From Planctomycetota bacterium (GTDB lineage Bacteria > Planctomycetota > UBA1135 > GCA-002686595): a stretch of DNA of 64,000 nucleotides. Location: positions 1 through 64,000 of the forward strand of contig CANKOY010000017.1 of NCBI GenBank assembly GCA_947484275.1. Direction: 5' to 3'. The notes beneath the pieces were generated by a model. The model was not told where the DNA came from and did no database searches. It worked only from the letters and a program-made list of their open reading frames with translations. Positions 17,073-49,059 of this stretch are shown piece after piece. Numbering within the stretch: position 1 is the first letter of the stretch; every line of letters starts with the position of its first letter. Both the position numbers and the translations under genes were made by a program.

Positions 17073-18647
17073 ATGCGGGTACTCGTCAGCGGAGCCACGG
17101 GATTTGTCGGCCGCGCCCTTTGCCTGCGCCTTGCGCGCGACGGGCACCAAGTCGTGGCCTGGGTGCGCAGTCCAGAGCGCGCGCGGCACTTGCTCGGGGC
17201 GGATGTCGAACTTGTCGCTATCGATGCTGGCGCTGGCGCCCGCAACGACGATTCCGGCGGGGAACTCGCACGGGAACTCTCGACCTGCGACGCGATCGTG
17301 CACCTCGCGGGCGAACCGGTGATCGGCAAGCGCTGGAGCGCGACGCAACGGGAGCGATTGCACTTGAGTCGCGTCGGCCTGGCGAATCGCCTCGTAGCAG
17401 CCATGTCCAAGTCCTCGCGCGCTCCGCACACCTTCGTCAGTTCGAGCGCCGTGGGTTATTACGGCGAGCGCGGCGACGATCGCTTGGGCGAGAATTCTCC
17501 CGCGGGGGACGATTTCCTCGCGCGCCTGTGCGTCGACTGGGAACAGGCGGCCCAAGCTGCCGCAAAGCACGGCGCGCGCGTCGTCTGCATGCGCACCGGA
17601 ATCGTCCTGGGCCCCGAGGGCGGCGTGCTCGGCGCGATGCGCTTGCCGTTTCAATTGGGCCTCGGCGGCCCCCTGGGTTCCGGCCGCCAGTACGTGCCCT
17701 GGGTTCACCTCGACGATCTGTTGGAGATGTACGCCCTCGCCCTGACGGATCCGACCATCGAAGGCCCGTGGAACGCGACCGCTCCAGAACCGGTGACCAA
17801 TGCGGAGTTCACTCGCGCCCTGGGCCGCGTTCTCCGACGCCCCGCCATTTTTACCGTGCCGAAGTTCGCGCTGTACGCAGCCCTGGGCGCGTCGGCTTCT
17901 GCGCCCCTCGGCAGTCAGCGCGCGATTCCAGAGCGCTTCCTCGGCCGCGGCTTCGCTTTCGTTCATCGCCAGATCGAGTCGGCGTTGCGCGAGATTCTGC
18001 GCGGCGATCACGGACTGCGCCTCGGCCCCGCGCGCGAAGTTCCAGATCACGCCTACTTGCGCGCTCGACGACCGACTCACGTCTTGGAGCAGACCACCGA
18101 AATTCGCGCGCCCCTGGCGCAGGTGGCGCAGTTTTTTTCCAAGGCGGAAAACCTCGGGATCCTGACGCCGCCGTCGATGGTCTTCCGCGTCGAGACGCCG
18201 CGACCGATCGCCATGGCCAAGGGCACGCGCATCGACTACACGCTGCGCCTTGGACCGTTTCCCTTGCGCTGGCGCACATCGATCGAAGTCTGGGACGACA
18301 GCGCAGGTTTCAGCGACGCGGAGGAACGCGGGCCGTTCCATTGTTGGTGGCACGAACATCGCTTCGAGGCCCAGGGGGAGGGCACGCTGATGCGCGACCG
18401 CGTGTTCTTCGCGGTGCTCCCCCGCTGGATCGGTTGGCTCGGATGGATGGAACGCGCGATCGTCGCGCTGACCGTGGGGCGCAGACTGCGGCGCATCTTC
18501 GGCTATCGCTCGCAGGCCATGGCCTGGAGGTTCGACGCCCGCGTTCCTAGCAGCCCGTTGAAAAAATCCCGTCGCGAGGCGCAGCGATCTTCGTCGTGGC
18601 TAGGAACGCGACGGAGGGACGGCGGAGGCGGCCTTCCTGGCCGCTGA
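17073..18647 (+). CDS. TIGR01777/YfcH-type NAD-dependent epimerase (DUF1731) fused to a C-terminal SRPBCC (START/Bet v1-like) domain. The last approximately 32 codons are read from a repeat element.
   Basis: MRVLVSGATGFVGRALCLRL is a Rossmann motif. The YfcH-like core follows, then a 150 aa SRPBCC-like region. The ORF continues into the palindromic element that begins at 18551. Confidence 0.8.
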   Translation: MRVLVSGATGFVGRALCLRLARDGHQVVAWVRSPERARHLLGADVELVAIDAGAGARNDDSGGELARELSTCDAIVHLAGEPVIGKRWSATQRERLHLSRVGLANRLVAAMSKSSRAPHTFVSSSAVGYYGERGDDRLGENSPAGDDFLARLCVDWEQAAQAAAKHGARVVCMRTGIVLGPEGGVLGAMRLPFQLGLGGPLGSGRQYVPWVHLDDLLEMYALALTDPTIEGPWNATAPEPVTNAEFTRALGRVLRRPAIFTVPKFALYAALGASASAPLGSQRAIPERFLGRGFAFVHRQIESALREILRGDHGLRLGPAREVPDHAYLRARRPTHVLEQTTEIRAPLAQVAQFFSKAENLGILTPPSMVFRVETPRPIAMAKGTRIDYTLRLGPFPLRWRTSIEVWDDSAGFSDAEERGPFHCWWHEHRFEAQGEGTLMRDRVFFAVLPRWIGWLGWMERAIVALTVGRRLRRIFGYRSQAMAWRFDARVPSSPLKKSRREAQRSSSWLGTRRRDGGGGLPGR

Positions 18648-18722
18648 GCACGGCCCGACGAGCGTGACGACGCCACGGCGAAGATCGCGAAGCCGCAGCA
18701 GGGCTCTTTTTCAATGGGCTGC
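18551..18722. repeat. Copy A of an approximately 175 bp palindromic intergenic element (MITE/REP-like).
   Basis: About 90% identical to 39839..40022 in the same orientation. The terminal arms are inverted repeats (cagcccgttgaaaaa...tttttcaatgggctg). The internal IR is gcggccttcctggccgc. Confidence 0.7.
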
Positions 18723-18728
18723 TAGGAT
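18720..18728 (+). promoter_or_regulatory. Extended -10-like element TGcTAGGAT, 11 nt upstream of the UDG start codon (near-leaderless).
   Basis: TG-n-TAGGAT matches the extended -10 TGnTATAAT at 5 of 6 hexamer positions. The same motif recurs upstream of two other start codons in this window. Confidence 0.35.
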
Positions 18729-18738
18729 CTGAAACTCC

Positions 18739-19452
18739 ATGGCGCGCCGAAGCACGAAGTCCAACGGCCGAGCTTCAGCCTGGACGACCCTCGAGCGCGA
18801 AATCGTCGGCTGCCGCGCCTGCCCGCGCTTGGTGCGCTGGCGCGAGGAAATCTCCTGCGTCAAACGCCGCGCCCACGCTGAGAAGGACTACTGGGGCCTG
18901 CCGGTGCCTTCCTTCGGGCCCCAGGACGCGCGCATCCTGCTGCTGGGTCTCGCCCCGGGGGCCCACGGGGCCAACCGCACGGGGCGGCCCTTCACGGGCG
19001 ACGGCGCCGGTCCCTTCCTTTATGGAGCGCTGCACCGGGCCGGGCTCGCCACGGGACCAGAATCGGTGTCACGGGACGACGGGCTCGAGCTGCGGGGCGC
19101 GCGGATCGCCAATGCGGTGCGCTGCGTCCCCCCGGGGAACAAACCGAGCCCGAGCGAGAGTCTGCGCTGCGCGCCATTCTTGGATCGCGAGTTGGAGCTG
19201 CTCGGGGAACTGCGCGTGATCCTCTGCCTGGGCGAAATTTCATGGCGCGCGGCCCACGGAGCCCTGGCGCGCCGAACCGACGGTCCAGCGCTGCGGCGAA
19301 CGCGCTTTGGCCACGGGGCCGTAGCCAAGATCGGCGCGCTGCACGTGCTTGGCTCTTACCACCCGAGCCAACTCAACACGCGCACAGGACGCCTGACCGC
19401 CGCGATGTTCGACGCCGTGATCGCGCGCGCGGTCGCCCTGGCGCGCGCGTAG
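18739..19452 (+). CDS. Uracil-DNA glycosylase, family 4/5 (thermostable UDG-type, Fe-S).
   Basis: GLAPGAHGANRTGRPFTGD motif. Cys residues (CRACPRL ... C) in the N-terminus are consistent with family-4/5 UDGs. A C-terminal HPS motif is present. Confidence 0.8.
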   Translation: MARRSTKSNGRASAWTTLEREIVGCRACPRLVRWREEISCVKRRAHAEKDYWGLPVPSFGPQDARILLLGLAPGAHGANRTGRPFTGDGAGPFLYGALHRAGLATGPESVSRDDGLELRGARIANAVRCVPPGNKPSPSESLRCAPFLDRELELLGELRVILCLGEISWRAAHGALARRTDGPALRRTRFGHGAVAKIGALHVLGSYHPSQLNTRTGRLTAAMFDAVIARAVALARA

Positions 19453-31839: not shown

Positions 31840-33903
31840 TCAGGGCGCGATTTGCGCTTCGAGCGCGTTGGTCAACGTCGCGTTGTTCGGCGCGGCGAAT
31901 CCCTGGTCGCGGCCCCAGAACTGGGTGCGCACTGTGTTGCCAACCACCTGCAAGCCCGGATCGCCCGTGCCGCCGGTGATGAAGGCGTTCAAGTCGAGCG
32001 TGTACACCCCGCTGCAGTCATTGCCCGTGGGATTGCCGCCCGAATTGAGCGCCGACGAGCGGCGAACAGGGCTGGCCACGCACAGCGTGCCTCCGGAGAA
32101 CGGCGCCGCGGCGCGACCGGTCAGGCTGTACATCAAGAGCCCCGGCTTGTTGTTGCGCACGTTCGTGCCGCGGACCGTGAAGCCGCTGCCCGCGCTGACG
32201 GACGGATTGCTGCCGATGAAACCGATCGACGGCGTGCAGCCCAGTGAGTTCACCTTCGGCGTGCAGTACACAACCGGCGGCGTGGTGCAGATCGACGCAG
32301 TGGATGTGTGGAACGCGGTGGGTGCGTCCTCGGGGCTCGACCAGACGATTCCGTTGCTGGCCGTGGTGCCGGTCACGTAGTACTGGAAGGTCGTGTTGCA
32401 GGCCACCGCCGGAAAATTCGCGTCGTAGAGTCCCCCGCCGAGCGCCACCAGGGGCACGCTGATCCAGTTGCCGGTCGTGCGATACCAAAGGCGCTCGGTG
32501 CCAGCGGTCAAAAGGCCCGCCTGGGACTGGTTGATCTGCACGCGCAGGCTGTGTCCCAGGTTGGAAACGGCCGCGGGTTGACCGTTGGGGAACGAAAAGG
32601 TGAGTTGGTGCGCGCCGACCCACCACACGAACAGGCCGCTCTCCAAGTCGGAGCCGGTGACCACGCCACCGGGGTGGAACGGATAGACGTTCCAAAGCCC
32701 GTTGTAGGTCGGGTTGTCGTCCGTGGTGCGCGTGTCGAACCAGGCGATTTCGGGAGGATTGTTCGGATTCTGCGCCAGGTCGTAGACGCGCACTCCGCTG
32801 GTGTACGCGGCCTGGAACAGCTTTGTCCCCAGGGTGTACTCGTTGTGCGGAATGGCCGAATTGCCATTGTTGAAGGAGCCGAGGAACACGGGCGCCGATG
32901 TGCCCAGACCCGAGATGTCAAAGACGTGGTTGATCGTCGGACCGCCGAGGTTGGGCACGTAGAGTTCGTCGTTGAGGTACAGGCGCGACTTGTCGGCGGA
33001 CAGCGTGCACTGATGGCCGTACTGACCGTTCGGCCAGGTGATGCGCGGCGTCACCGCTGTGATGTTGGCCTTGTTGGTTACATCGAGGATATCGACGCCG
33101 GTGTTCGCCCAACCGCCGTTATCGCCGCCGCAGGCGAAGGCGATCTCTTTGCCCGCGAGCGGACCGCTGGTGTAGTTCACCAGGGTGACTTCGTGTGTGT
33201 ACCGAGAGGACCAGGACGCCACGTACAACGGCGCCGCGGGGTTGGGATTCAGGTTGTAGATCCGCAGACCGTTCGAACCTCCGCCGGAGCGATAGAGGTA
33301 TCCGGTTTGAGTGTTGATCTCCATCGAGTGTGTCGCCGCAGGCGACGGGCCCGAGGTAATCGTGTTCACCAGGGTGACGACGCCACTGTCGATGTTCGCC
33401 AGATCGATCACCTGGATGCCGCCGCCGCCCTCGCTCACTGCGTAGGCGTAGTGCGAGAACACGCGCACGTCGCGCCACAGACTGTCTGGTCCCGCGATGT
33501 AGCCGACGTTCACGGTTTGCCCCGGCGCCGTGATCTCAGCGAACCCGGTGCCGCCGTAGAGCCCCATCAATGCGTAGCGCCGACCCGAGGCGGAAACGTA
33601 GCCCCAGCCGGAATTGCCGTTCTGCTGGTTCGCGCCCCAGGTGTTCAGGGGCAGCCACGACAGGAGCTTGACGTTGAATGAACTGAACGGCGACGAACTG
33701 TAGGAACCGGAACTGCCGGGGCCGGCGGGCACGAATCCAGGCAAAGGCGCGCCCAGCGGGCCCAGGGGGCTGTGGTACCCGGGCCCCGTGTAGGGCGCGC
33801 GGCGATCAAGCACCTTTCCGTCGCCATCGTGGGCGCCAACTAGGGCGCCGAGGGTCATGGCAGCTGCCAAGGCGAGGAACAGGTTGCGGGGTGAACCGAT
33901 CAT
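31840..33903 (-). CDS. Secreted LVIVD-repeat beta-propeller protein carrying a approximately 150 aa Cys-rich C-terminal domain of unrecognised type.
   Basis: Signal peptide ([24 protein letters not shown]). LVIVD-like repeats ([39 protein letters not shown]). The C-terminal 150 aa are approximately 65% identical to the C-terminus of the 46741..48726 protein. Confidence 0.75.
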
Positions 33904-34276
33904 GGAAGGGCTCCTGCGGTGCGAATCGGGTAGGGGCAATCGCGAGTATGTCGCCCCTGGATCCTACACCCTGGGACGGTTCGTCAATGATTCGTGAAGA
34001 CTCTGTCAGCCGGGCCATTCGGTGCAGGAGCGCAAATCCCAGTCAGGCAGGGCTCCGCCTGTTGGATGTCGAGCCCCTCGCGGACTCGATCCCCTGGGAC
34101 GCTGGTCTCGGTCGGGTGCCGGAGGAAAGAGGGCCCGCAGCTCCACTAGGGAGTACTCGCTGCGTCTGGACGAAAGGACGGCCCTGGGTTCATGAAGCCC
34201 TTCGGCGCCTGTGGAATCGATCCCGCCCGCAGGCCCGGGTGGATTTGCTGCGGAGCCCCCGGTAGCGTGCGGCCCA

Positions 34277-39393: not shown

Positions 39394-39720
39394 TCAGGAA
39401 CCGCCCAGGGAAGTTCCGGCCCCGCGGCGATCCGCGGCGGACTCCACCGAAAGCTCCTGGGCCGTGCCCATGCGGCTGCGGACGGCAAGCGATTGGCGCA
39501 CCTGCGAGCAGCTGGTCTCGCAGGGCAGCTGGCGCGTCTGGCCATCGACACAGCCCTCGGCCTTTGCTCCAAATGTCTCCGTCTGGGTGTTACAGCAGTC
39601 CACCGCAGTCGCCGATTCGCGCGCCGCCGGGCTGCGGTCTGCGGAGAGATAGCAGTAGGCACTACCAAGAACGCCGGACACCAGCAGGAAAACAAGCGCG
39701 GCGAGACTCTTGATCGACAT
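39394..39720 (-). CDS. Small secreted Cys-rich protein (hypothetical).
   Basis: Signal peptide (MSIKSLAALVFLLVSGVLGSA). A 85 aa mature region contains 8 Cys (CYLS...CCNTQTE...C...C...C). No known family. An AT-rich patch lies upstream. Confidence 0.4.
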   Translation of the reverse strand: MSIKSLAALVFLLVSGVLGSAYCYLSADRSPAARESATAVDCCNTQTETFGAKAEGCVDGQTRQLPCETSCSQVRQSLAVRSRMGTAQELSVESAADRRGAGTSLGGS

Positions 39721-39838
39721 GGGCACGGTCCTTGACTGGGGTAACCGACGAACACTAACCGGCGGAATTCCCGGGGATACGTCGCTCGCACGTACGGTGC
39801 CGGAAAAAATTCAATAAATGGGGCTGGGAGTGCCCTCG

Positions 39839-40022
39839 CAGCCCGCCCGAAAAAGTCCCGTTGCGAGGCGGAGCGATCTTCGTCGTGGCTAGGAACGCGC
39901 TGAAGGGACGACGGGGGGACGGCGGAGGCGGCCTTCCTGGCCCCTGAGCACGGCCCGACGAGTGTGACGACGCCACGGCGAAGAGCGCGAAACCGCAGCA
40001 GGGCACTTTTTCGGGCGGGCTG
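39839..40022. repeat. Copy B of the approximately 175 bp palindromic intergenic element (MITE/REP-like).
   Basis: About 90% identical to 18551..18722. The terminal inverted repeats are cagcccgcccgaaaaag...ctttttcgggcgggctg. It lies immediately 3' of the M3 peptidase stop. Confidence 0.7.
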
Positions 40023-40083
40023 CGAGCCAGGCCAGGAGCTGAGACGGATCACGCCGAAATCGCGCCCCCGGGGTGCCCCCGCC

Positions 40084-41997
40084 CTACGCCTCGAGCCAGC
40101 GCCGCCAGGCGTCGATCGAGTACGACCGGCCGAGGAAGTCCTCGACAAGTTCGTTCGCGTCCTTGGCGCCCCCCGGAGCGAGGATCTTCTCGCGATACTC
40201 ACGAGCGACCTCGCGGTCCATGGGATTGGCGGCGAAGCGGCTGTGCAGGTCCTTGGCGATGACCAGCGACCACATGTAGGTGTAGTAGATCGCCGAGTAG
40301 CCGTGCAGGTGGCCGAAGGAGCACTGAAAATGCGTCCCCTCCTCGTGGGGGAAGGGCAGCATCGCGCGCTTGAGTTCGATCATGCGCGCGGTCGTGTCCA
40401 AGTCCCGGGGATCGACTTCGTGGTACGCGATCGCCAGCCTCGCGTAGAACATCTGCTGCGCGACGCCGAGGCCCTTTCCGAATTCGTCGGCAGCGCGCAT
40501 GGAGCGCGCGAGTTCCTGGGGCAGGAGTTCGCCAGTCTTGTGATGCTTGGCGAAGCGCGCCAGGACCGCGGGGTCCCAGGCCCATTCCTCGAACAGTTGG
40601 CTGGGCACTTCAACAAAGTCCCATTCGGTTGCGATGCCTGAGAACGCGAACTGCCGCCCGCGTCCGGCGAACAGGTGGTGCAGTAGGTGCCCGAATTCGT
40701 GGAAGAACGTCGTGACGTCGCGATGTTGAAGCAGCCCGGGGTCGCTGGCGCTGGACTGGCTGAAATTGCAGACCAGACAAGCCTCCGGCAGGATCTCGCC
40801 CGCAATTCCAGCGTGCAGCGGGAACATCGCGGCGTGCTTGTACTTGTCCTTCCTGGGGTGCATGTCGAGCCATAGGCGAGCGACGCGCGCGCCATCGCCC
40901 TCGAAGACGTCGTAGCACTCGACGGATTCGTGCCAGCGCGCCTCCTCGAGATTCAATTTGAAGCGCACGCCAAAAAGCTCGGCGGCAAGGTTGAGGACGC
41001 CGCGCTTGACGTTGTCGTATGCGAAATACGGCCGCACGGACTGGGAATCGAACGCGAATTGGTCCGCCTTCACGCACTCAACGAGGTAGGCGCGCTCCCA
41101 ATCGAAAACCTGTTCCGCCCCGGGATCGAGGACGCGTTTGTGGGTCAGGAGCACCTGCAATTCGCGTTCGACCGCGCCGCGCGCTTCAACGCCGATGCGA
41201 TCGACAAAGGCGCGTGCGGCGTCGGCGGACTTCACCATCTTGTCTTCGGTGACGTAGTCGGCGAAGGAGCGATGACCCAAGAGGCCCGCGAGCTCGTGCC
41301 GCAGCCCCAAGAGCTTCCCCAGGTTGGCGAGGTTGGCCGGGTGGCCGCGATTGACGTACTCGCGGTACAGCCTGCGACGCGCCTTTCCGCTCTTCGCGTA
41401 GCACATGAACGGAACGAAGTCCGTTGGATCTGTGCTGACGCTAACGGCACCCTGGGCGTCCGGCGGGTGGTTGGCGATCCAGTCCTGGGGCAAGCCCTCG
41501 AGCGCGCTCACTCCCTCGGCGAAGATCACGCCGCGCACATCTCCGACAATCGCCAGGTCGAAGGCCTGACCGACTTTGGTCAACTCATCGGAGAGCGCCT
41601 GGATCCGGGCCCGTGTGGCTTCGTCGCGATCCACTCCGCTGCGTTTGTAGTCGCGGGCCGCGTGGCGAACTGCGCGCGCGTCCGCTCCCCGAAGCGTCGC
41701 CGAGGGGACCGCCGACAGGCGCTCATAGGCTCCGCGATCCAGACTCAGCTCCGTCTGAAACGAGGCGAAATCCTGCTCGAGTTCCCGCGCGGCCTGGCGC
41801 ATCTGTGCGGCGGGGTGCACCTGGGAGAACAGCCCAGCCCAGCCGAGGTAGGCGTCAAGGGGCACACCGATGCGATCGAAAGCGCGCGCGGCTTCCACGG
41901 CCGGCGTATTGGGGGGGAGCGCAACGAATGCGTCGCGCCGCGCCCGCGCAGCGCGGATCGTCGCGCGCGCATCGGCCAGCCAACGCTCTGCGCTCAT
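40084..41997 (-). CDS. M3-family zinc metallopeptidase (oligopeptidase A/dipeptidyl carboxypeptidase-like).
   Basis: HEFGHLLHH is the HExxH. Downstream Glu, typical M3 thimet-oligopeptidase architecture, 637 aa. Confidence 0.9.
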   Translation of the reverse strand: MSAERWLADARATIRAARARRDAFVALPPNTPAVEAARAFDRIGVPLDAYLGWAGLFSQVHPAAQMRQAARELEQDFASFQTELSLDRGAYERLSAVPSATLRGADARAVRHAARDYKRSGVDRDEATRARIQALSDELTKVGQAFDLAIVGDVRGVIFAEGVSALEGLPQDWIANHPPDAQGAVSVSTDPTDFVPFMCYAKSGKARRRLYREYVNRGHPANLANLGKLLGLRHELAGLLGHRSFADYVTEDKMVKSADAARAFVDRIGVEARGAVERELQVLLTHKRVLDPGAEQVFDWERAYLVECVKADQFAFDSQSVRPYFAYDNVKRGVLNLAAELFGVRFKLNLEEARWHESVECYDVFEGDGARVARLWLDMHPRKDKYKHAAMFPLHAGIAGEILPEACLVCNFSQSSASDPGLLQHRDVTTFFHEFGHLLHHLFAGRGRQFAFSGIATEWDFVEVPSQLFEEWAWDPAVLARFAKHHKTGELLPQELARSMRAADEFGKGLGVAQQMFYARLAIAYHEVDPRDLDTTARMIELKRAMLPFPHEEGTHFQCSFGHLHGYSAIYYTYMWSLVIAKDLHSRFAANPMDREVAREYREKILAPGGAKDANELVEDFLGRSYSIDAWRRWLEA

Positions 41998-46740: not shown

Positions 46741-48726
46741 TCAAGGGCCAACGATGAACTCGAGCCCGTTGGAAAGCGTCGAGTTGTTCGGGGACGCGAA
46801 GCCGTTGTCGCGACCCCAGAACTGGCAATCCACCAGCGTGCCCAAAACCGTCAGGAACGCCTGCGGGCTGCCACCGAGACCGCCAACGGCGAACGTGTTC
46901 ATGTCGATCGCGTAGGTGCCCGAGCAATCGTTCGGCGGAGGATTGCCACCCGAGTTCAGCGCGGTGGAGCGACGGACCGGCGTGCCGACGCAGCGCAGAC
47001 CGCCTTGGAACGGAACTGCCGCTTGACCACCATTGGTGTAAAGCAAGAGGCCCGGCTTGTTGTTGATCACGTTCGTCGCGGTGACGCTGAAGCCCACACC
47101 GGCCGTCGCGCTCGAAACGCCCGAGGATCCGATCGAGGGCGTGCAGCCCAGCGAGTTCACTTTCGCCGTGCAGTAGACGACCGGGCAGGTGCCCGAGAGC
47201 GTGTAACCGAACGCGGACGATGCGGTCCAATCCGAAAGCCAGGTCCTGCAGGAAGCGCCAGGCTCGAAGCCTCCGCGGTAGGACGCTGGGGTGAAGAATC
47301 CGTCGTTGGGGGCCGAGGCAACGCTGACCATGGCGGCGTTCGCCGGACGCGGGTTGAGCCCGATGACCGGAACCATCGTCTTGCCCCCCTTGACCACGGC
47401 CGGGCCGCGGGTGACCGACACCACGGGCGCGTCAGCGTCCAGGATGCCCGGGATCAGCACGTTGTTGTTGCCCGCACCGAACACTCCAACGGTGGTCGCC
47501 TGGGTGTAGGCCGAGGCGAACGGATTGCGGAAGAAGACGCTGTCGGTGACCTCGGCCAATTTGCCCGAGGTTTGCACCTGGTAGAACGCTGCCGGATTCG
47601 CCGGATCATTGGCATGGGCCGGGACTGCATTGAAGTCGGTCGTCCAGGTGTTCGCCCAGCTCAAGGTCCCATTGAATCCGTAGCCGTTGGCGCCATCGCC
47701 ATCTACGTTGTCGAACTTGACCAGCTCCTCGCCGAGGTCCATGAAGATGCAGTTGCGGTACTGAGCACGAGCGTTGTCGCGCCAGGCCGTTCCATGGTCA
47801 CCGGCAACCGGCTGGCCGATCACCGTGAAGTTGTAGATCGTCGTCGTGGTCACGGGCTGCCAGTTGGAGTCCTCGGCGCCGTCCACCTCGAAGCAGTTGT
47901 CGCCGACGCCCGAGCCCTGGGCCGCGTTCAGGCTGTGGCCTTGAACGATCAGGCCAAACTGCGCCTTCCCGCGCCAACCCTGGTCGACGTCGAAGGAGTC
48001 GTCACCGATGTTCCAGATGCTGATGTACTTCAGGCCGACGGTCCCGCCCCAAATCTCGATGCCGTCGTCGACGTTGTTCATGATCTCAACGTGATGGATG
48101 TCCGTGCCACGGCCGATGCCGCCGAGGGACAGACCGTTCAACTCGTTGTTCAGCCCGACGACCTTGCCGCCGTAGCGCAGCGACAGATAGCTGATCGTGC
48201 CGCTGTCATCGTCGTCGTTGCCCCCGCCGTAGCGATCCGTCGAGGGCCCGTTCACGAGGCCTTCCATGTCGGCGACGTTGCTGGCGCTCGGGACAGGTGT
48301 GTTCGTACCAATGGCGTTTTCGGAAATGAAAGCCGCGCCCATGATCGTGAGATTGCCCCACTCGTTGGCGGACTCGCGCCACGTTCCGGTCTGGGGGTTG
48401 CCGCTGATCCAGGTGGCCTGGTCGGCCGTGGAAGTCATGATCACGGGCTGGGTGCGCGTGCCGTTGACGAAGATCTGCGCGCCCTTGCACACCGCGAGGC
48501 TGCCGCCAAGGTTGGTCTGGCTTGCGATGACGGTGCCCGGCTCGATCGTCAGTGTTGCGCCGGGCAGCACGTAGATCTGCTGCTGCAGCTTGTAGGTGTT
48601 GTTCGCTGTCCAGGTCGTTGAAACAGCGATGTTTGCGGTCACGAGGATGTCGGCGGCCTGGGCGGTCGAAGCAAGGCCGGCGCAAAGCAGGGCGGGAACG
48701 GCGGTTCCCTTCAAGAGGCGTCTCAC
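46741..48726 (-). CDS. Secreted right-handed parallel beta-helix protein carrying the same approximately 150 aa Cys-rich C-terminal domain as the LVIVD protein.
   Basis: GTG start at 48726 with an AGGAGA RBS 7 nt upstream. Signal peptide [22 protein letters not shown]-terminal [30 protein letters not shown] is typical of beta-helix glycosidase/lyase-like proteins. The C-terminal 150 aa are approximately 65% identical to those of the 31840..33903 protein. Confidence 0.75.
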
Positions 48727-49059
48727 GGTTGGCTCTCCTTGGAGTCGGATGGGGATCTCCGCGCAGGCCAGGGAGACTCCCCGGCGAAATGCTGCACGTG
48801 CGGGGGATGCTAGAAGCGCTTTGTGCATGGCCCGTGAAGCGACAGTGAAAGTCCGCCGGGAAAAACGACCGCGCCAGAGCACAGGATCAGGGCCCAGCAT
48901 CCAGCGCGAACCCCTGCGGACCGCTGGACCTTGAGAGCGTGATCGCGCCGCCAGCGCACCTTTCCGCCTGCCGGACCCGAGAGAAACGACACCGGATGAC
49001 GCGCAGGAGGCTGCGCGCTGTGAACTCCTCTCGAAAAGGAGTTGTGTTCGAAGGCTGGG

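Follow-up and report, generated by a model that had tools for sequence, protein, structure and literature searches.

A palindromic element with the termini of IS5/IS1182-type insertion sequences at the end of an epimerase gene of a Planctomycetota bacterium

The epimerase gene of this contig ends inside a palindromic sequence that occurs a second time in the window, i.e., in the whole 64 kb stretch of DNA analysed here. This raises the question of what the repeated sequence is and how it came to form the end of a protein-coding gene. The earlier note labelled it MITE/REP-like, and the first half of this label can be retained: the element is almost certainly a non-coding MITE of 171–184 bp with the terminal inverted repeats (TIRs) of IS5/IS1182-type DDE insertion sequences (IS). 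The assignment to mobile MITEs is based on the TIRs, the 4-bp target duplication, the dispersed copies and the termini common to the element and to transposase-encoding IS. The REP-like half is at odds with a target duplication and with a parent IS of the DDE type.

The repeat reported in the earlier note was recovered by BLASTN (E = 3e-59) and nhmmer (E = 3.5e-61 and 3.8e-65) searches of the 64 kb window. Copies A and B (Table 1) lie where the note had placed them, in the same orientation, and are 89% identical with one 11-nt indel; a repeat search of the window gave 94% identity between positions 18609–18712 and 39909–40012 and 88% between 18560–18628 and 39849–39917. No third copy was detected in the 64 kb, the best leftover matches having E = 0.03 (BLASTN) and 0.39 (nhmmer). 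The element ends are CAGCCCGTTGAAAAAAT... and ...CTTTTTCAATGGGCTG. Each copy is an imperfect palindrome with arms of 55–56 nt that are 77–78% complementary, plus a central inverted repeat, and both are rod-like when folded, in agreement with the palindrome described earlier. The RNA-fold z-scores are −10.4 (copy A) and −7.7 (copy B) for the plus strand and −6.8 and −5.9 for the minus strand, and none of 200 shuffles folded equally well. The longest reading frames that cross the element have 55–83 aa, and there is no transposase ORF. A phmmer search with a 60-aa element frame against 1.84 billion representatives returned element-derived peptides only and no transposase. The target-site duplication of copy A is a perfect 4-bp CTAG; this tetranucleotide is also found inside the copy, at 18600.

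Table 1. Coordinates of the element copies and neighbouring features in the window.
Feature	Position	Strand	Remark
TIGR01777-type epimerase/DUF1731 gene	17073–18647	+	3' end chimeric
Target-site duplication of copy A, left (CTAG)	18547–18550		direct reading
Copy A of the element	18551–18721	+	171 bp; CTAG flanks both sides
Left TIR of copy A	~18551–18570		one mismatch to the IS consensus
Right TIR of copy A	~18702–18721		two mismatches to the IS consensus
Target-site duplication of copy A, right (CTAG)	18722–18725		direct reading
Ancestral epimerase stop TGA	18730–18732	+	now beyond reach of the reading frame
UDG-family gene	18739–19452	+	91 nt after the new epimerase stop; originally 6 nt
110-aa ORF	39394–39726	−	signal-peptide-like N-terminus; no Pfam hit; starts 108 nt past the left flank of copy B
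Copy B of the element	39839–40022	+	184 bp; 11-nt insertion relative to copy A
Peptidase M3 gene	40084–41997	−	its stop codon and the right flank of copy B are 57 nt apart

The 17-nt terminus CAGCCCGTTGAAAAAGT with its flanking CTAG also bounds at least 37 full-length IS in public metagenomes, and the termini of copy A depart from this IS consensus by one mismatch on the left and two on the right. A scan of JGI metagenome contigs with CTAGNAGCCCGTTGAAAAAGT matched at least 120 contigs. In the fetched loci, both termini are present in 81 elements, including about 37 of 1.37–1.65 kb and about 40 small non-coding derivatives of 58–345 bp. The flanking 4-mers are identical in 59 of the 81 paired elements (58 CTAG, 1 CTAA); among the 79 ends that the search pattern had not itself dictated, CTAG flanks 55, CTAA 5 and TTAG 5. 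In the long elements, a promoter-like TTGACA...TATAAT accompanies one ORF starting with MA(L/M)GKRK..., and the transposases of two of them (L132:135-1559 and L107:2953-4389) match Pfam DUF772 and DDE_Tnp_1. Among the NCBIfam models, IS1182 is the best match to both and the IS5 models are second; since the IS1182 scores of 157 and 189 bits are under the equivalog cut-off of 270 (NF033551), the assignment to this family is tentative. The architecture of the full-length IS can be summarised as a length of 1.4–1.65 kb, one DDE ORF of 440–478 aa, TIRs of at least 17 nt and a 4-bp duplication. A 50% identical IS of plasmid pLB1 (L137), annotated as 'IS5 family transposase', has the TIR CAGGCCGTTGACGAAGTCGG and the duplication CTAA/CTAA; as the latter is not palindromic, it sets the duplication length at 4 bp. 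A transposase-encoding copy with these termini was not found within the 64 kb window, and the interior of the MITE is unlike any of the approximately 37 full-length IS seen.

That the element has copies beyond the window agrees with the mobility suspected in the earlier note. At least seven copies with the same interior lie on seven contigs of the MAG ND5_Bin_60, a lower bound obtained with one exact 18-mer. The same interior was found in the JGI contigs L086, L089 and L119, the copy in L089 having 96.5% identity with copy A, and in L068 as a deleted copy of 58 bp. CTAG/CTAG flanks surround six other copies with this interior (L005, L008, L009, L011, L068 and L089). Viral contigs, scanned twice with core patterns of 20 and 22 nt, contained no match, and a BLASTN search (distant mode) of the PLSDB plasmids with the element gave none either. 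When the proteins of the window and of ND5_Bin_60 were compared, one paralogous family of unknown function was all they shared.

The effect of copy A on the epimerase gene can be read from the junction. As the earlier note had observed, the reading frame runs 32 codons into the element (codons 493–524, positions 18549–18644, SSPLKKSRREAQRSSSWLGTRRRDGGGGLPGR) and reaches a TGA at 18645–18647, which is also element-derived and lies near the hairpin apex. The epimerase homologues cover only about 93–94% of the query length. No similarity to the 32-aa tail was found among 39 aligned homologues, and the two nearest (63–65% identity) stop two residues past the junction; the tail is thus absent from orthologues, and the comparison proposed in the earlier note does not refute a mobile element. 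In silico deletion of 18551–18725 (the element and one CTAG) gives ...CCTAGGATCTGA, read as GTT CCT AGG ATC TGA, or VPRI-stop. This agrees with the two nearest relatives, whose syntenic epimerase–UDG loci lack the element (L133 and L134, 63–65% aa identity) and read ...CCTACGATCTGA, with CCT ACG ATC TGA (VPTI-stop) followed by 6 nt and the UDG ATG, while the window has at the same site CCTAG[171-bp element]CTAGGATCTGA followed by 6 nt and the UDG ATG. This empty site, together with the in silico excision, demonstrates that copy A entered a CTAG 7 nt ahead of the epimerase stop and that 32 element codons took the place of the last two native codons and their stop. The earlier proposal that the native C-terminus or stop had been replaced was therefore correct, just two residues having been lost. 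One partial sequence with 99% identity (P0001) has the tail too; it was the only sequence found at this identity, and close relatives yielded no empty site.

Copy A has also split the epimerase–UDG operon junction. Between the new epimerase stop and the UDG gene lies the 3' arm of the hairpin, and in the minimum-free-energy fold the AGGA of the UDG ribosome-binding region (18724–18727) is predicted to pair within the basal stem of the 85-bp hairpin. Translation of UDG could consequently depend on that of the epimerase, with ribosomes crossing the 5' arm, which would be a translational coupling built by a MITE. The earlier suggestion that the element supplies a promoter-like TGcTAGGAT to the UDG gene is not supported: TGC alone is element-derived, while TAG belongs to the target duplication and GAT to the native sequence. 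The hexamer TAGGAT predates the insertion, and relatives carry TACGAT at that place. A promoter scan found no site, and there is no promoter consensus.

Copy B is located in an intergenic spacer and has the variant termini CAGCCCGCCCGAAAAAG and CTTTTTCGGGCGGGCTG. Its flanks, CTCG (39835–39838) and CGAG (40023–40026), are mirror images and not a direct repeat. Mirrored substitutions can be noted in both arms, CTAG having become CTCG at the left end but CGAG at the right one; further changes of this kind have turned GTTG into GCCCG together with CAAC into CGGGC. Together they produce a perfect 22-bp terminal stem that is richer in GC. The terminal variant of copy B was not encountered elsewhere in 0.5 Mb of fetched loci. 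These mirrored changes could reflect maintenance of the palindrome, either through selection of an RNA or DNA hairpin or through quasi-palindrome template-switch correction. If the stem of copy B were maintained in this way, or UDG translation coupled as suggested for copy A, the hairpin might have a role in this genome and not be mere junk, although we regard this as unlikely.

The position of both copies at gene ends had been called consistent with a terminator or mRNA-stabilising role in the earlier note. The CTAG target explains it better. The window contains 46 CTAG sites where its composition predicts 206 (approximately four-fold depletion); GATC occurs 536 times. At least six of the CTAG sites fall on the stop codons of long ORFs with high GC3. 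An M24 peptidase gene in L011 has its TAG stop within the target duplication. Location at gene ends can thus be explained by the rarity of CTAG in a GC-rich genome and its frequent overlap with TAG stops; the bias probably follows from target availability and from selection purging disruptive insertions.

If the hairpin itself were under selection, and its recurrence due to function and not to mobility, the element would be a structured non-coding RNA gene or a cis-regulatory RNA (terminator, stabiliser or processing site), which we consider very improbable. The very strong folding of both copies, the compensatory changes in the terminal stem of copy B and the situation of copy A within an operon transcript all agree with such a role, and across 11 copies the plus strand is always the more stable RNA, by 1–19 kcal/mol. 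This strand asymmetry, however, is inherited from one master copy and hence is no independent evidence. Over seven full copies, the covariation term is a penalty (+2.7); double changes occur in only 2 of 63 pairs, and only in copy B, while the other copies have many broken pairs. As copy B alone has compensatory changes in the seven-copy alignment, those seen when it is compared with copy A were dropped as evidence of a structured RNA. Rfam matches neither at the gathering score nor at E ≤ 10, and the two copies differ in orientation relative to their flanking genes. Scans for intrinsic terminators (a GC-rich hairpin with a U-tract) flagged neither copy, and no promoter site was found; the stem of copy A is followed by CTAGGATCTGAAAC. 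With no U-tract and no covariation across seven copies, the terminator or mRNA-stabilising hairpin proposed in the earlier note is not supported. Nor would a selected RNA account for the target duplications or for termini that are also those of IS.

Two further readings accept mobility and differ in the transposase. The palindromic and mostly intergenic character of the element, its position at gene ends and the common orientation of the window copies would also suit a REP/BIME palindrome moved on single-stranded DNA by a RAYT (Y1, IS200/IS605-like) transposase. REPs are roughly 20–40 nt long, are not known to duplicate their target and depend on a Y1 (RAYT) transposase, whereas the element measures 171–184 bp, has a 4-bp YTAR duplication and shares identical termini with IS of the DDE type; the probability of this origin is close to negligible. 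Only slightly more credible is a MITE of the IS630/Tc1-mariner type with a CTAG target, of which only the central TA would be duplicated, the proper element being G-CAGCCC...GGGCTG-C. IS630 prefers CTAG, and within this palindromic target TA and CTAG duplications look alike. Nevertheless, every full-length element examined encodes DUF772 and DDE_Tnp_1 and no IS630-type transposase, and the CTAA/CTAA of the pLB1 relative, with inverted repeats beginning at CAG, fits a 4-bp duplication only. The IS630-type TA duplication was rejected on these two grounds.

For the MITE with IS5/IS1182-type termini, the following mechanism can be proposed. A transposase provided in trans, presumably from a source in the same cell, would bind the termini of about 17–20 nt. 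It would then cut a YTAR target, in the great majority of cases CTAG, with a stagger of 4 bp and insert the element, and subsequent repair would duplicate CTAG. Once transcribed, the element would have to fold into an RNA hairpin of about 85 bp, and any regulatory consequence of this hairpin would probably be a by-product.

The full-length IS resemble the IS1182 family in length, single ORF, DUF772 and DDE_Tnp_1(_6) domains, TIRs and 4-bp duplication; in ISPse1 of Paracoccus, a member of this family, the length is 1653 bp, the inverted repeats measure 16 bp and the direct repeat 4 bp (PMC3281130). They also conform to the outline of the family, with about 1.3–1.95 kb, one DDE ORF, inverted repeats of about 16 bp and 4-bp direct repeats. 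They differ from the family in the sub-threshold scores of their transposases, and the window element has no ORF and an interior unrelated to the full-length copies seen. The likeness to the IS5 group of the IS5 family consists in the YTAR target (C/T-T-A-A/G), the 4-bp duplication, the second-best NCBIfam models and the annotation of the pLB1 relative. IS5 transposases are approximately 330 aa long and IS5 termini typically start with GG or GA, whereas the transposases here have about 450–480 aa and the termini begin with CAG. As for small elements, Rickettsia RPE, enterobacterial ERIC, Neisseria Correia and pneumococcal BOX/RUP are likewise 100–200 bp long, form a full-length hairpin and lie in or at the ends of genes. 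In-frame protein extensions are known among them, with MITE–host ORF fusions described for RPE, ERIC and BOX (PMC10969869). The window element is unrelated to them in sequence and has another parent IS family, and here there is only a C-terminal swap of 2 residues for 32.

The element is thus an ordinary MITE, and current understanding is not challenged by it. For annotation, the last 32 residues of the epimerase should be treated as transposon-derived and outside the protein family; at least eight further clusters of predicted proteins have similar transposon-derived extensions at the N- or C-terminus. The locus provides a worked example of how, in GC-rich genomes with few CTAG sites that often overlap TAG stops, an element with this target reaches gene ends. 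The large metagenomic group of IS5/IS1182-like IS, which share one conserved terminus and have independently given rise to many MITEs, is a resource in its own right.

A repeat search of the window revealed two pairs of related segments, 18609-18712/39909-40012 (94% identity) and 18560-18628/39849-39917 (88% identity), which lie within two copies of one element, A and B (see the table). BLASTN (E=3e-59) and nhmmer (E=3.5e-61 and 3.8e-65) agree, and the gapped alignment of the copies contains a single 11-nt indel; no third copy or fragment was found by either program within the 64 kb. As the earlier note stated, both copies are long imperfect palindromes; their arms of 55–56 nt are 77–78% complementary. 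Both fold into a rod-like hairpin far better than shuffled sequences (z = -10.4 and -7.7 for the + strand, -6.8 and -5.9 for the - strand).

Features of the element, its surroundings and its relatives (window coordinates unless a retrieved locus, L-number, is named)
Feature	Position	Strand	Remarks
Epimerase ORF	17073-18647	+	524 aa; Epimerase, NAD_binding_10, DUF1731 domains
Six-residue insertion in epimerase	~18415-18450	+	
Left CTAG	18547-18550		
Copy A	18551-18721		171 bp
New epimerase stop, TGA	18645-18647	+	just past hairpin apex, within element
Right CTAG	18722-18725		
Ancestral epimerase stop, TGA	18730-18732	+	
UDG start	18739	+	
Copy B	39839-40022		184 bp, same orientation as A
Mirrored arm changes in copy B	39835-39855, 40006-40026		
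Paralogous ORF	31843-33963	-	707 aa, stop to stop
Paralogous ORF	46744-49059	-	772 aa, stop to stop
Relatives of paralogous ORFs	L005 2500-4416, L012 4589-6355		PD40 repeat in L005
62-bp insert	L006 4938-4999, L009 6534-6595		
58-bp copy	L068 2120-2185		
79-bp MITE	L125 644-730		
Transposase ORFs	L132 135-1559, L107 2953-4389		474 aa, 478 aa

Homologues cover only ~93–94% of the epimerase ORF, and in the alignment with 39 of them conservation extends up to ...AMAWRFDARVP and none is seen beyond. The proteins of the two nearest homologues, P0002 and P0003 (63–65% identity), stop two residues beyond the junction, with the ends ...WRFGVGVPTI and ...WRFGVGAPTI. When 18551-18725 (the element and one CTAG) is removed, the window reads GTT CCT AGG ATC TGA, i.e., VPRI-stop, the same length as in the relatives. 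In the DNA of these two relatives, CCT ACG ATC TGA is followed after 6 nt by the ATG of a UDG-family gene; the window has CCTAG[171 bp]CTAG GATCTGA aactcc ATG. These syntenic empty sites show that the element is an insertion, which swapped two residues (R-I) for 32 element-encoded ones, displaced the ancestral stop and split an epimerase–UDG pair formerly 6 nt apart. Thus, the native C-terminus and stop were indeed replaced, as had been suggested. The one close relative found, P0001 (99% identical, partial), has the same tail and thus gave no empty allele. Named homologues at 46–50% identity come mostly from Myxococcota MAGs. None of the 39 aligned homologues has the six-residue insertion that the epimerase shows further upstream (AVLPRWIGWLGW vs AAP------FGW), perhaps a small duplication.

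Copy A is flanked by CTAG on both sides, as are most of the copies compared; these brackets, which the earlier note does not mention, are a target-site duplication. The terminus CTAGNAGCCCGTTGAAAAAGT is present in at least 120 JGI metagenome contigs from very different habitats. Among the JGI matches listed, three classes of elements follow inward from it: many carry a TTGACA...TATAAT-like promoter and then an ORF starting MA(L/M)GKRK..ERQQ.LW, many are short with unrelated interiors, and a few have the interior of the window element. Pairing of left and right termini in the retrieved DNA gave 81 complete elements among the matches listed, with bimodal sizes (~37 of 1.37–1.65 kb and ~40 of 58–345 bp); identical 4-mers flank 59 of them (58 CTAG, 1 CTAA). 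At the 79 listed ends unconstrained by the search pattern, CTAG was found 55 times and CTAA and TTAG five times each, so the target is YTAR. One 79-bp MITE with the same termini (L125) keeps the TTGACAC-N17-TACAAT promoter-like region of the IS and could act as a mobile promoter.

The ORFs of two of the long elements (in L132 and in L107, the latter a complete 1662-bp IS) have Pfam DUF772 and DDE_Tnp_1(_6) domains. Among NCBIfam models, IS1182 scores highest for both, although its 157–189 bits fall short of the curated cut-off (270), and IS5 models come next. Plasmid pLB1 carries a relative of 50% identity, annotated as 'IS5 family transposase', with the TIRs CAGGCCGTTGACGAAGTCGG / CAGCGCGGTGACGAAGTCGG. 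Since its CTAA/CTAA duplication is non-palindromic, the duplication comprises 4 bp and not TA within CTAG, and an IS630-type MITE was rejected. The architecture of ISPse1 of the IS1182 family (1653 bp, 16-bp IR, 4-bp DR; PMC3281130) agrees with that of the long elements carrying the window termini. The window element appears to descend from IS1182-like/IS5-like DDE insertion sequences that duplicate 4 bp at YTAR.

The 18-nt core TCGTCGTGGCTAGGAACG, scanned against one genome per GTDB species, matched ten loci, three of them by chance. The other seven lie on seven contigs of one MAG, 'Planctomycetota bacterium ND5_Bin_60' (the Planctomycetota label is from its submitters); all are full or end-truncated copies (nhmmer E 1e-20 to 1e-48), 81–89% identical to the window copies. 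Among the JGI matches listed, the same interior occurs in a few elements: L086, L119, L068 and L089, the last with 96.5% identity to copy A. Copies thus exist outside the window, and their absence was what the earlier note would have taken as a refutation. The L068 copy, internally deleted to 58 bp, separates two high-GC3 ORFs that converge on it and end in the TAGs of its two CTAG duplications. An identical 62-bp palindromic insert, holding a strong hairpin, occupies the apical loop of two ND5_Bin_60 copies (L006, L009) and occurs nowhere else in the DNA examined, being either a small nested element or a variant of a subfamily. ND5_Bin_60 also encodes relatives (39–51% identity) of two paralogous window ORFs that correspond to repeats D3/D4 and have no Pfam domain.

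The 60-aa frame that is open through copy A, compared by phmmer with 1.84 billion representative proteins, gave ten matches (E<=1e-3), of which some eight clearly derive from the element and are N-terminal, internal or C-terminal in called ORFs; thus, the family is present in several other genomes and is not abundant. Such peptides in predicted ORFs of 117–393 aa from other genomes (P0121-P0130) probably reflect either artefacts of gene models or real fusions; in P0124, for example, the frame of the element lengthens a lipoprotein-like ORF on its upstream side. The element has no match among PLSDB plasmids.

The position at gene ends had been called consistent with a terminator or mRNA stabiliser. 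Stem differences between copies A and B (GTT/AAT vs GCCC/GGGC; CTAG/CTAG vs CTCG/CGAG) looked compensatory, and the + strand RNA is more stable in all 11 folded copies, by 1 to 19 kcal/mol; the latter is no independent evidence, since all copies derive from one master. RNAalifold of seven full copies gave a covariation term of +2.7, i.e., a penalty, which speaks against the stem changes as a sign of selected RNA: double changes affect 2 of 63 pairs, both from copy B, and the other copies simply lose pairs. Neither copy fits the intrinsic-terminator pattern or matches an Rfam family, even at E<=10, and both an intrinsic terminator and a known structured RNA were rejected. CTAG is strongly depleted in the window, with 46 occurrences vs 206 expected from base composition (GATC, of equal composition, 536). 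The MITE copies contribute four of the 46, and at least six others coincide with stop codons of long high-GC3 ORFs; in L011, the M24 peptidase TAG stop lies within the left duplication. From this scarcity and stop overlap, we infer that target availability and selection against disruptive insertions suffice for the 3'-end location, and a terminator or stabiliser role is unneeded. We conclude that the palindrome belongs to the transposon itself and is subject to neutral decay.

Copy B is an exception. Its arms carry mirrored changes relative to the family consensus, with flanks CTCG/CGAG (not CTAG/CTAG) and stems GCCCG/CGGGC (not GTTG/CAAC), and together these produce a terminal stem of 22 bp with perfect pairing, a variant seen in none of the other copies in 0.5 Mb of retrieved loci. 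Its cause may be quasi-palindrome template switching, or else selection acting locally. The promoter-like TGcTAGGAT, supposedly supplied by the element to UDG, owes to it only TGC: TAG comes from the duplication, GAT is native, and the hexamer TAGGAT is older than the insertion. A promoter scan found no sigma-70-like site. The minimum-free-energy fold pairs AGGA (18724-18727) with 18545-18550, and, speculatively, the hairpin may now sequester the ribosome-binding region of UDG within the transcript of the operon; in that case, UDG could be translated only when ribosomes read through the 5' arm.

The window element is a MITE by every criterion applied, and not a REP/BIME, contrary to the REP-like label. 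The reading of a mobile element altering a gene end was right; the functions attached to it are unsupported. Two curiosities are left, namely copy B with its mirrored substitutions and the possible sequestration. MITE–ORF fusions are well documented for RPE, ERIC and BOX (PMC10969869), and the present element is a further case of this known phenomenon, belonging to a MITE family that regularly contaminates gene models.
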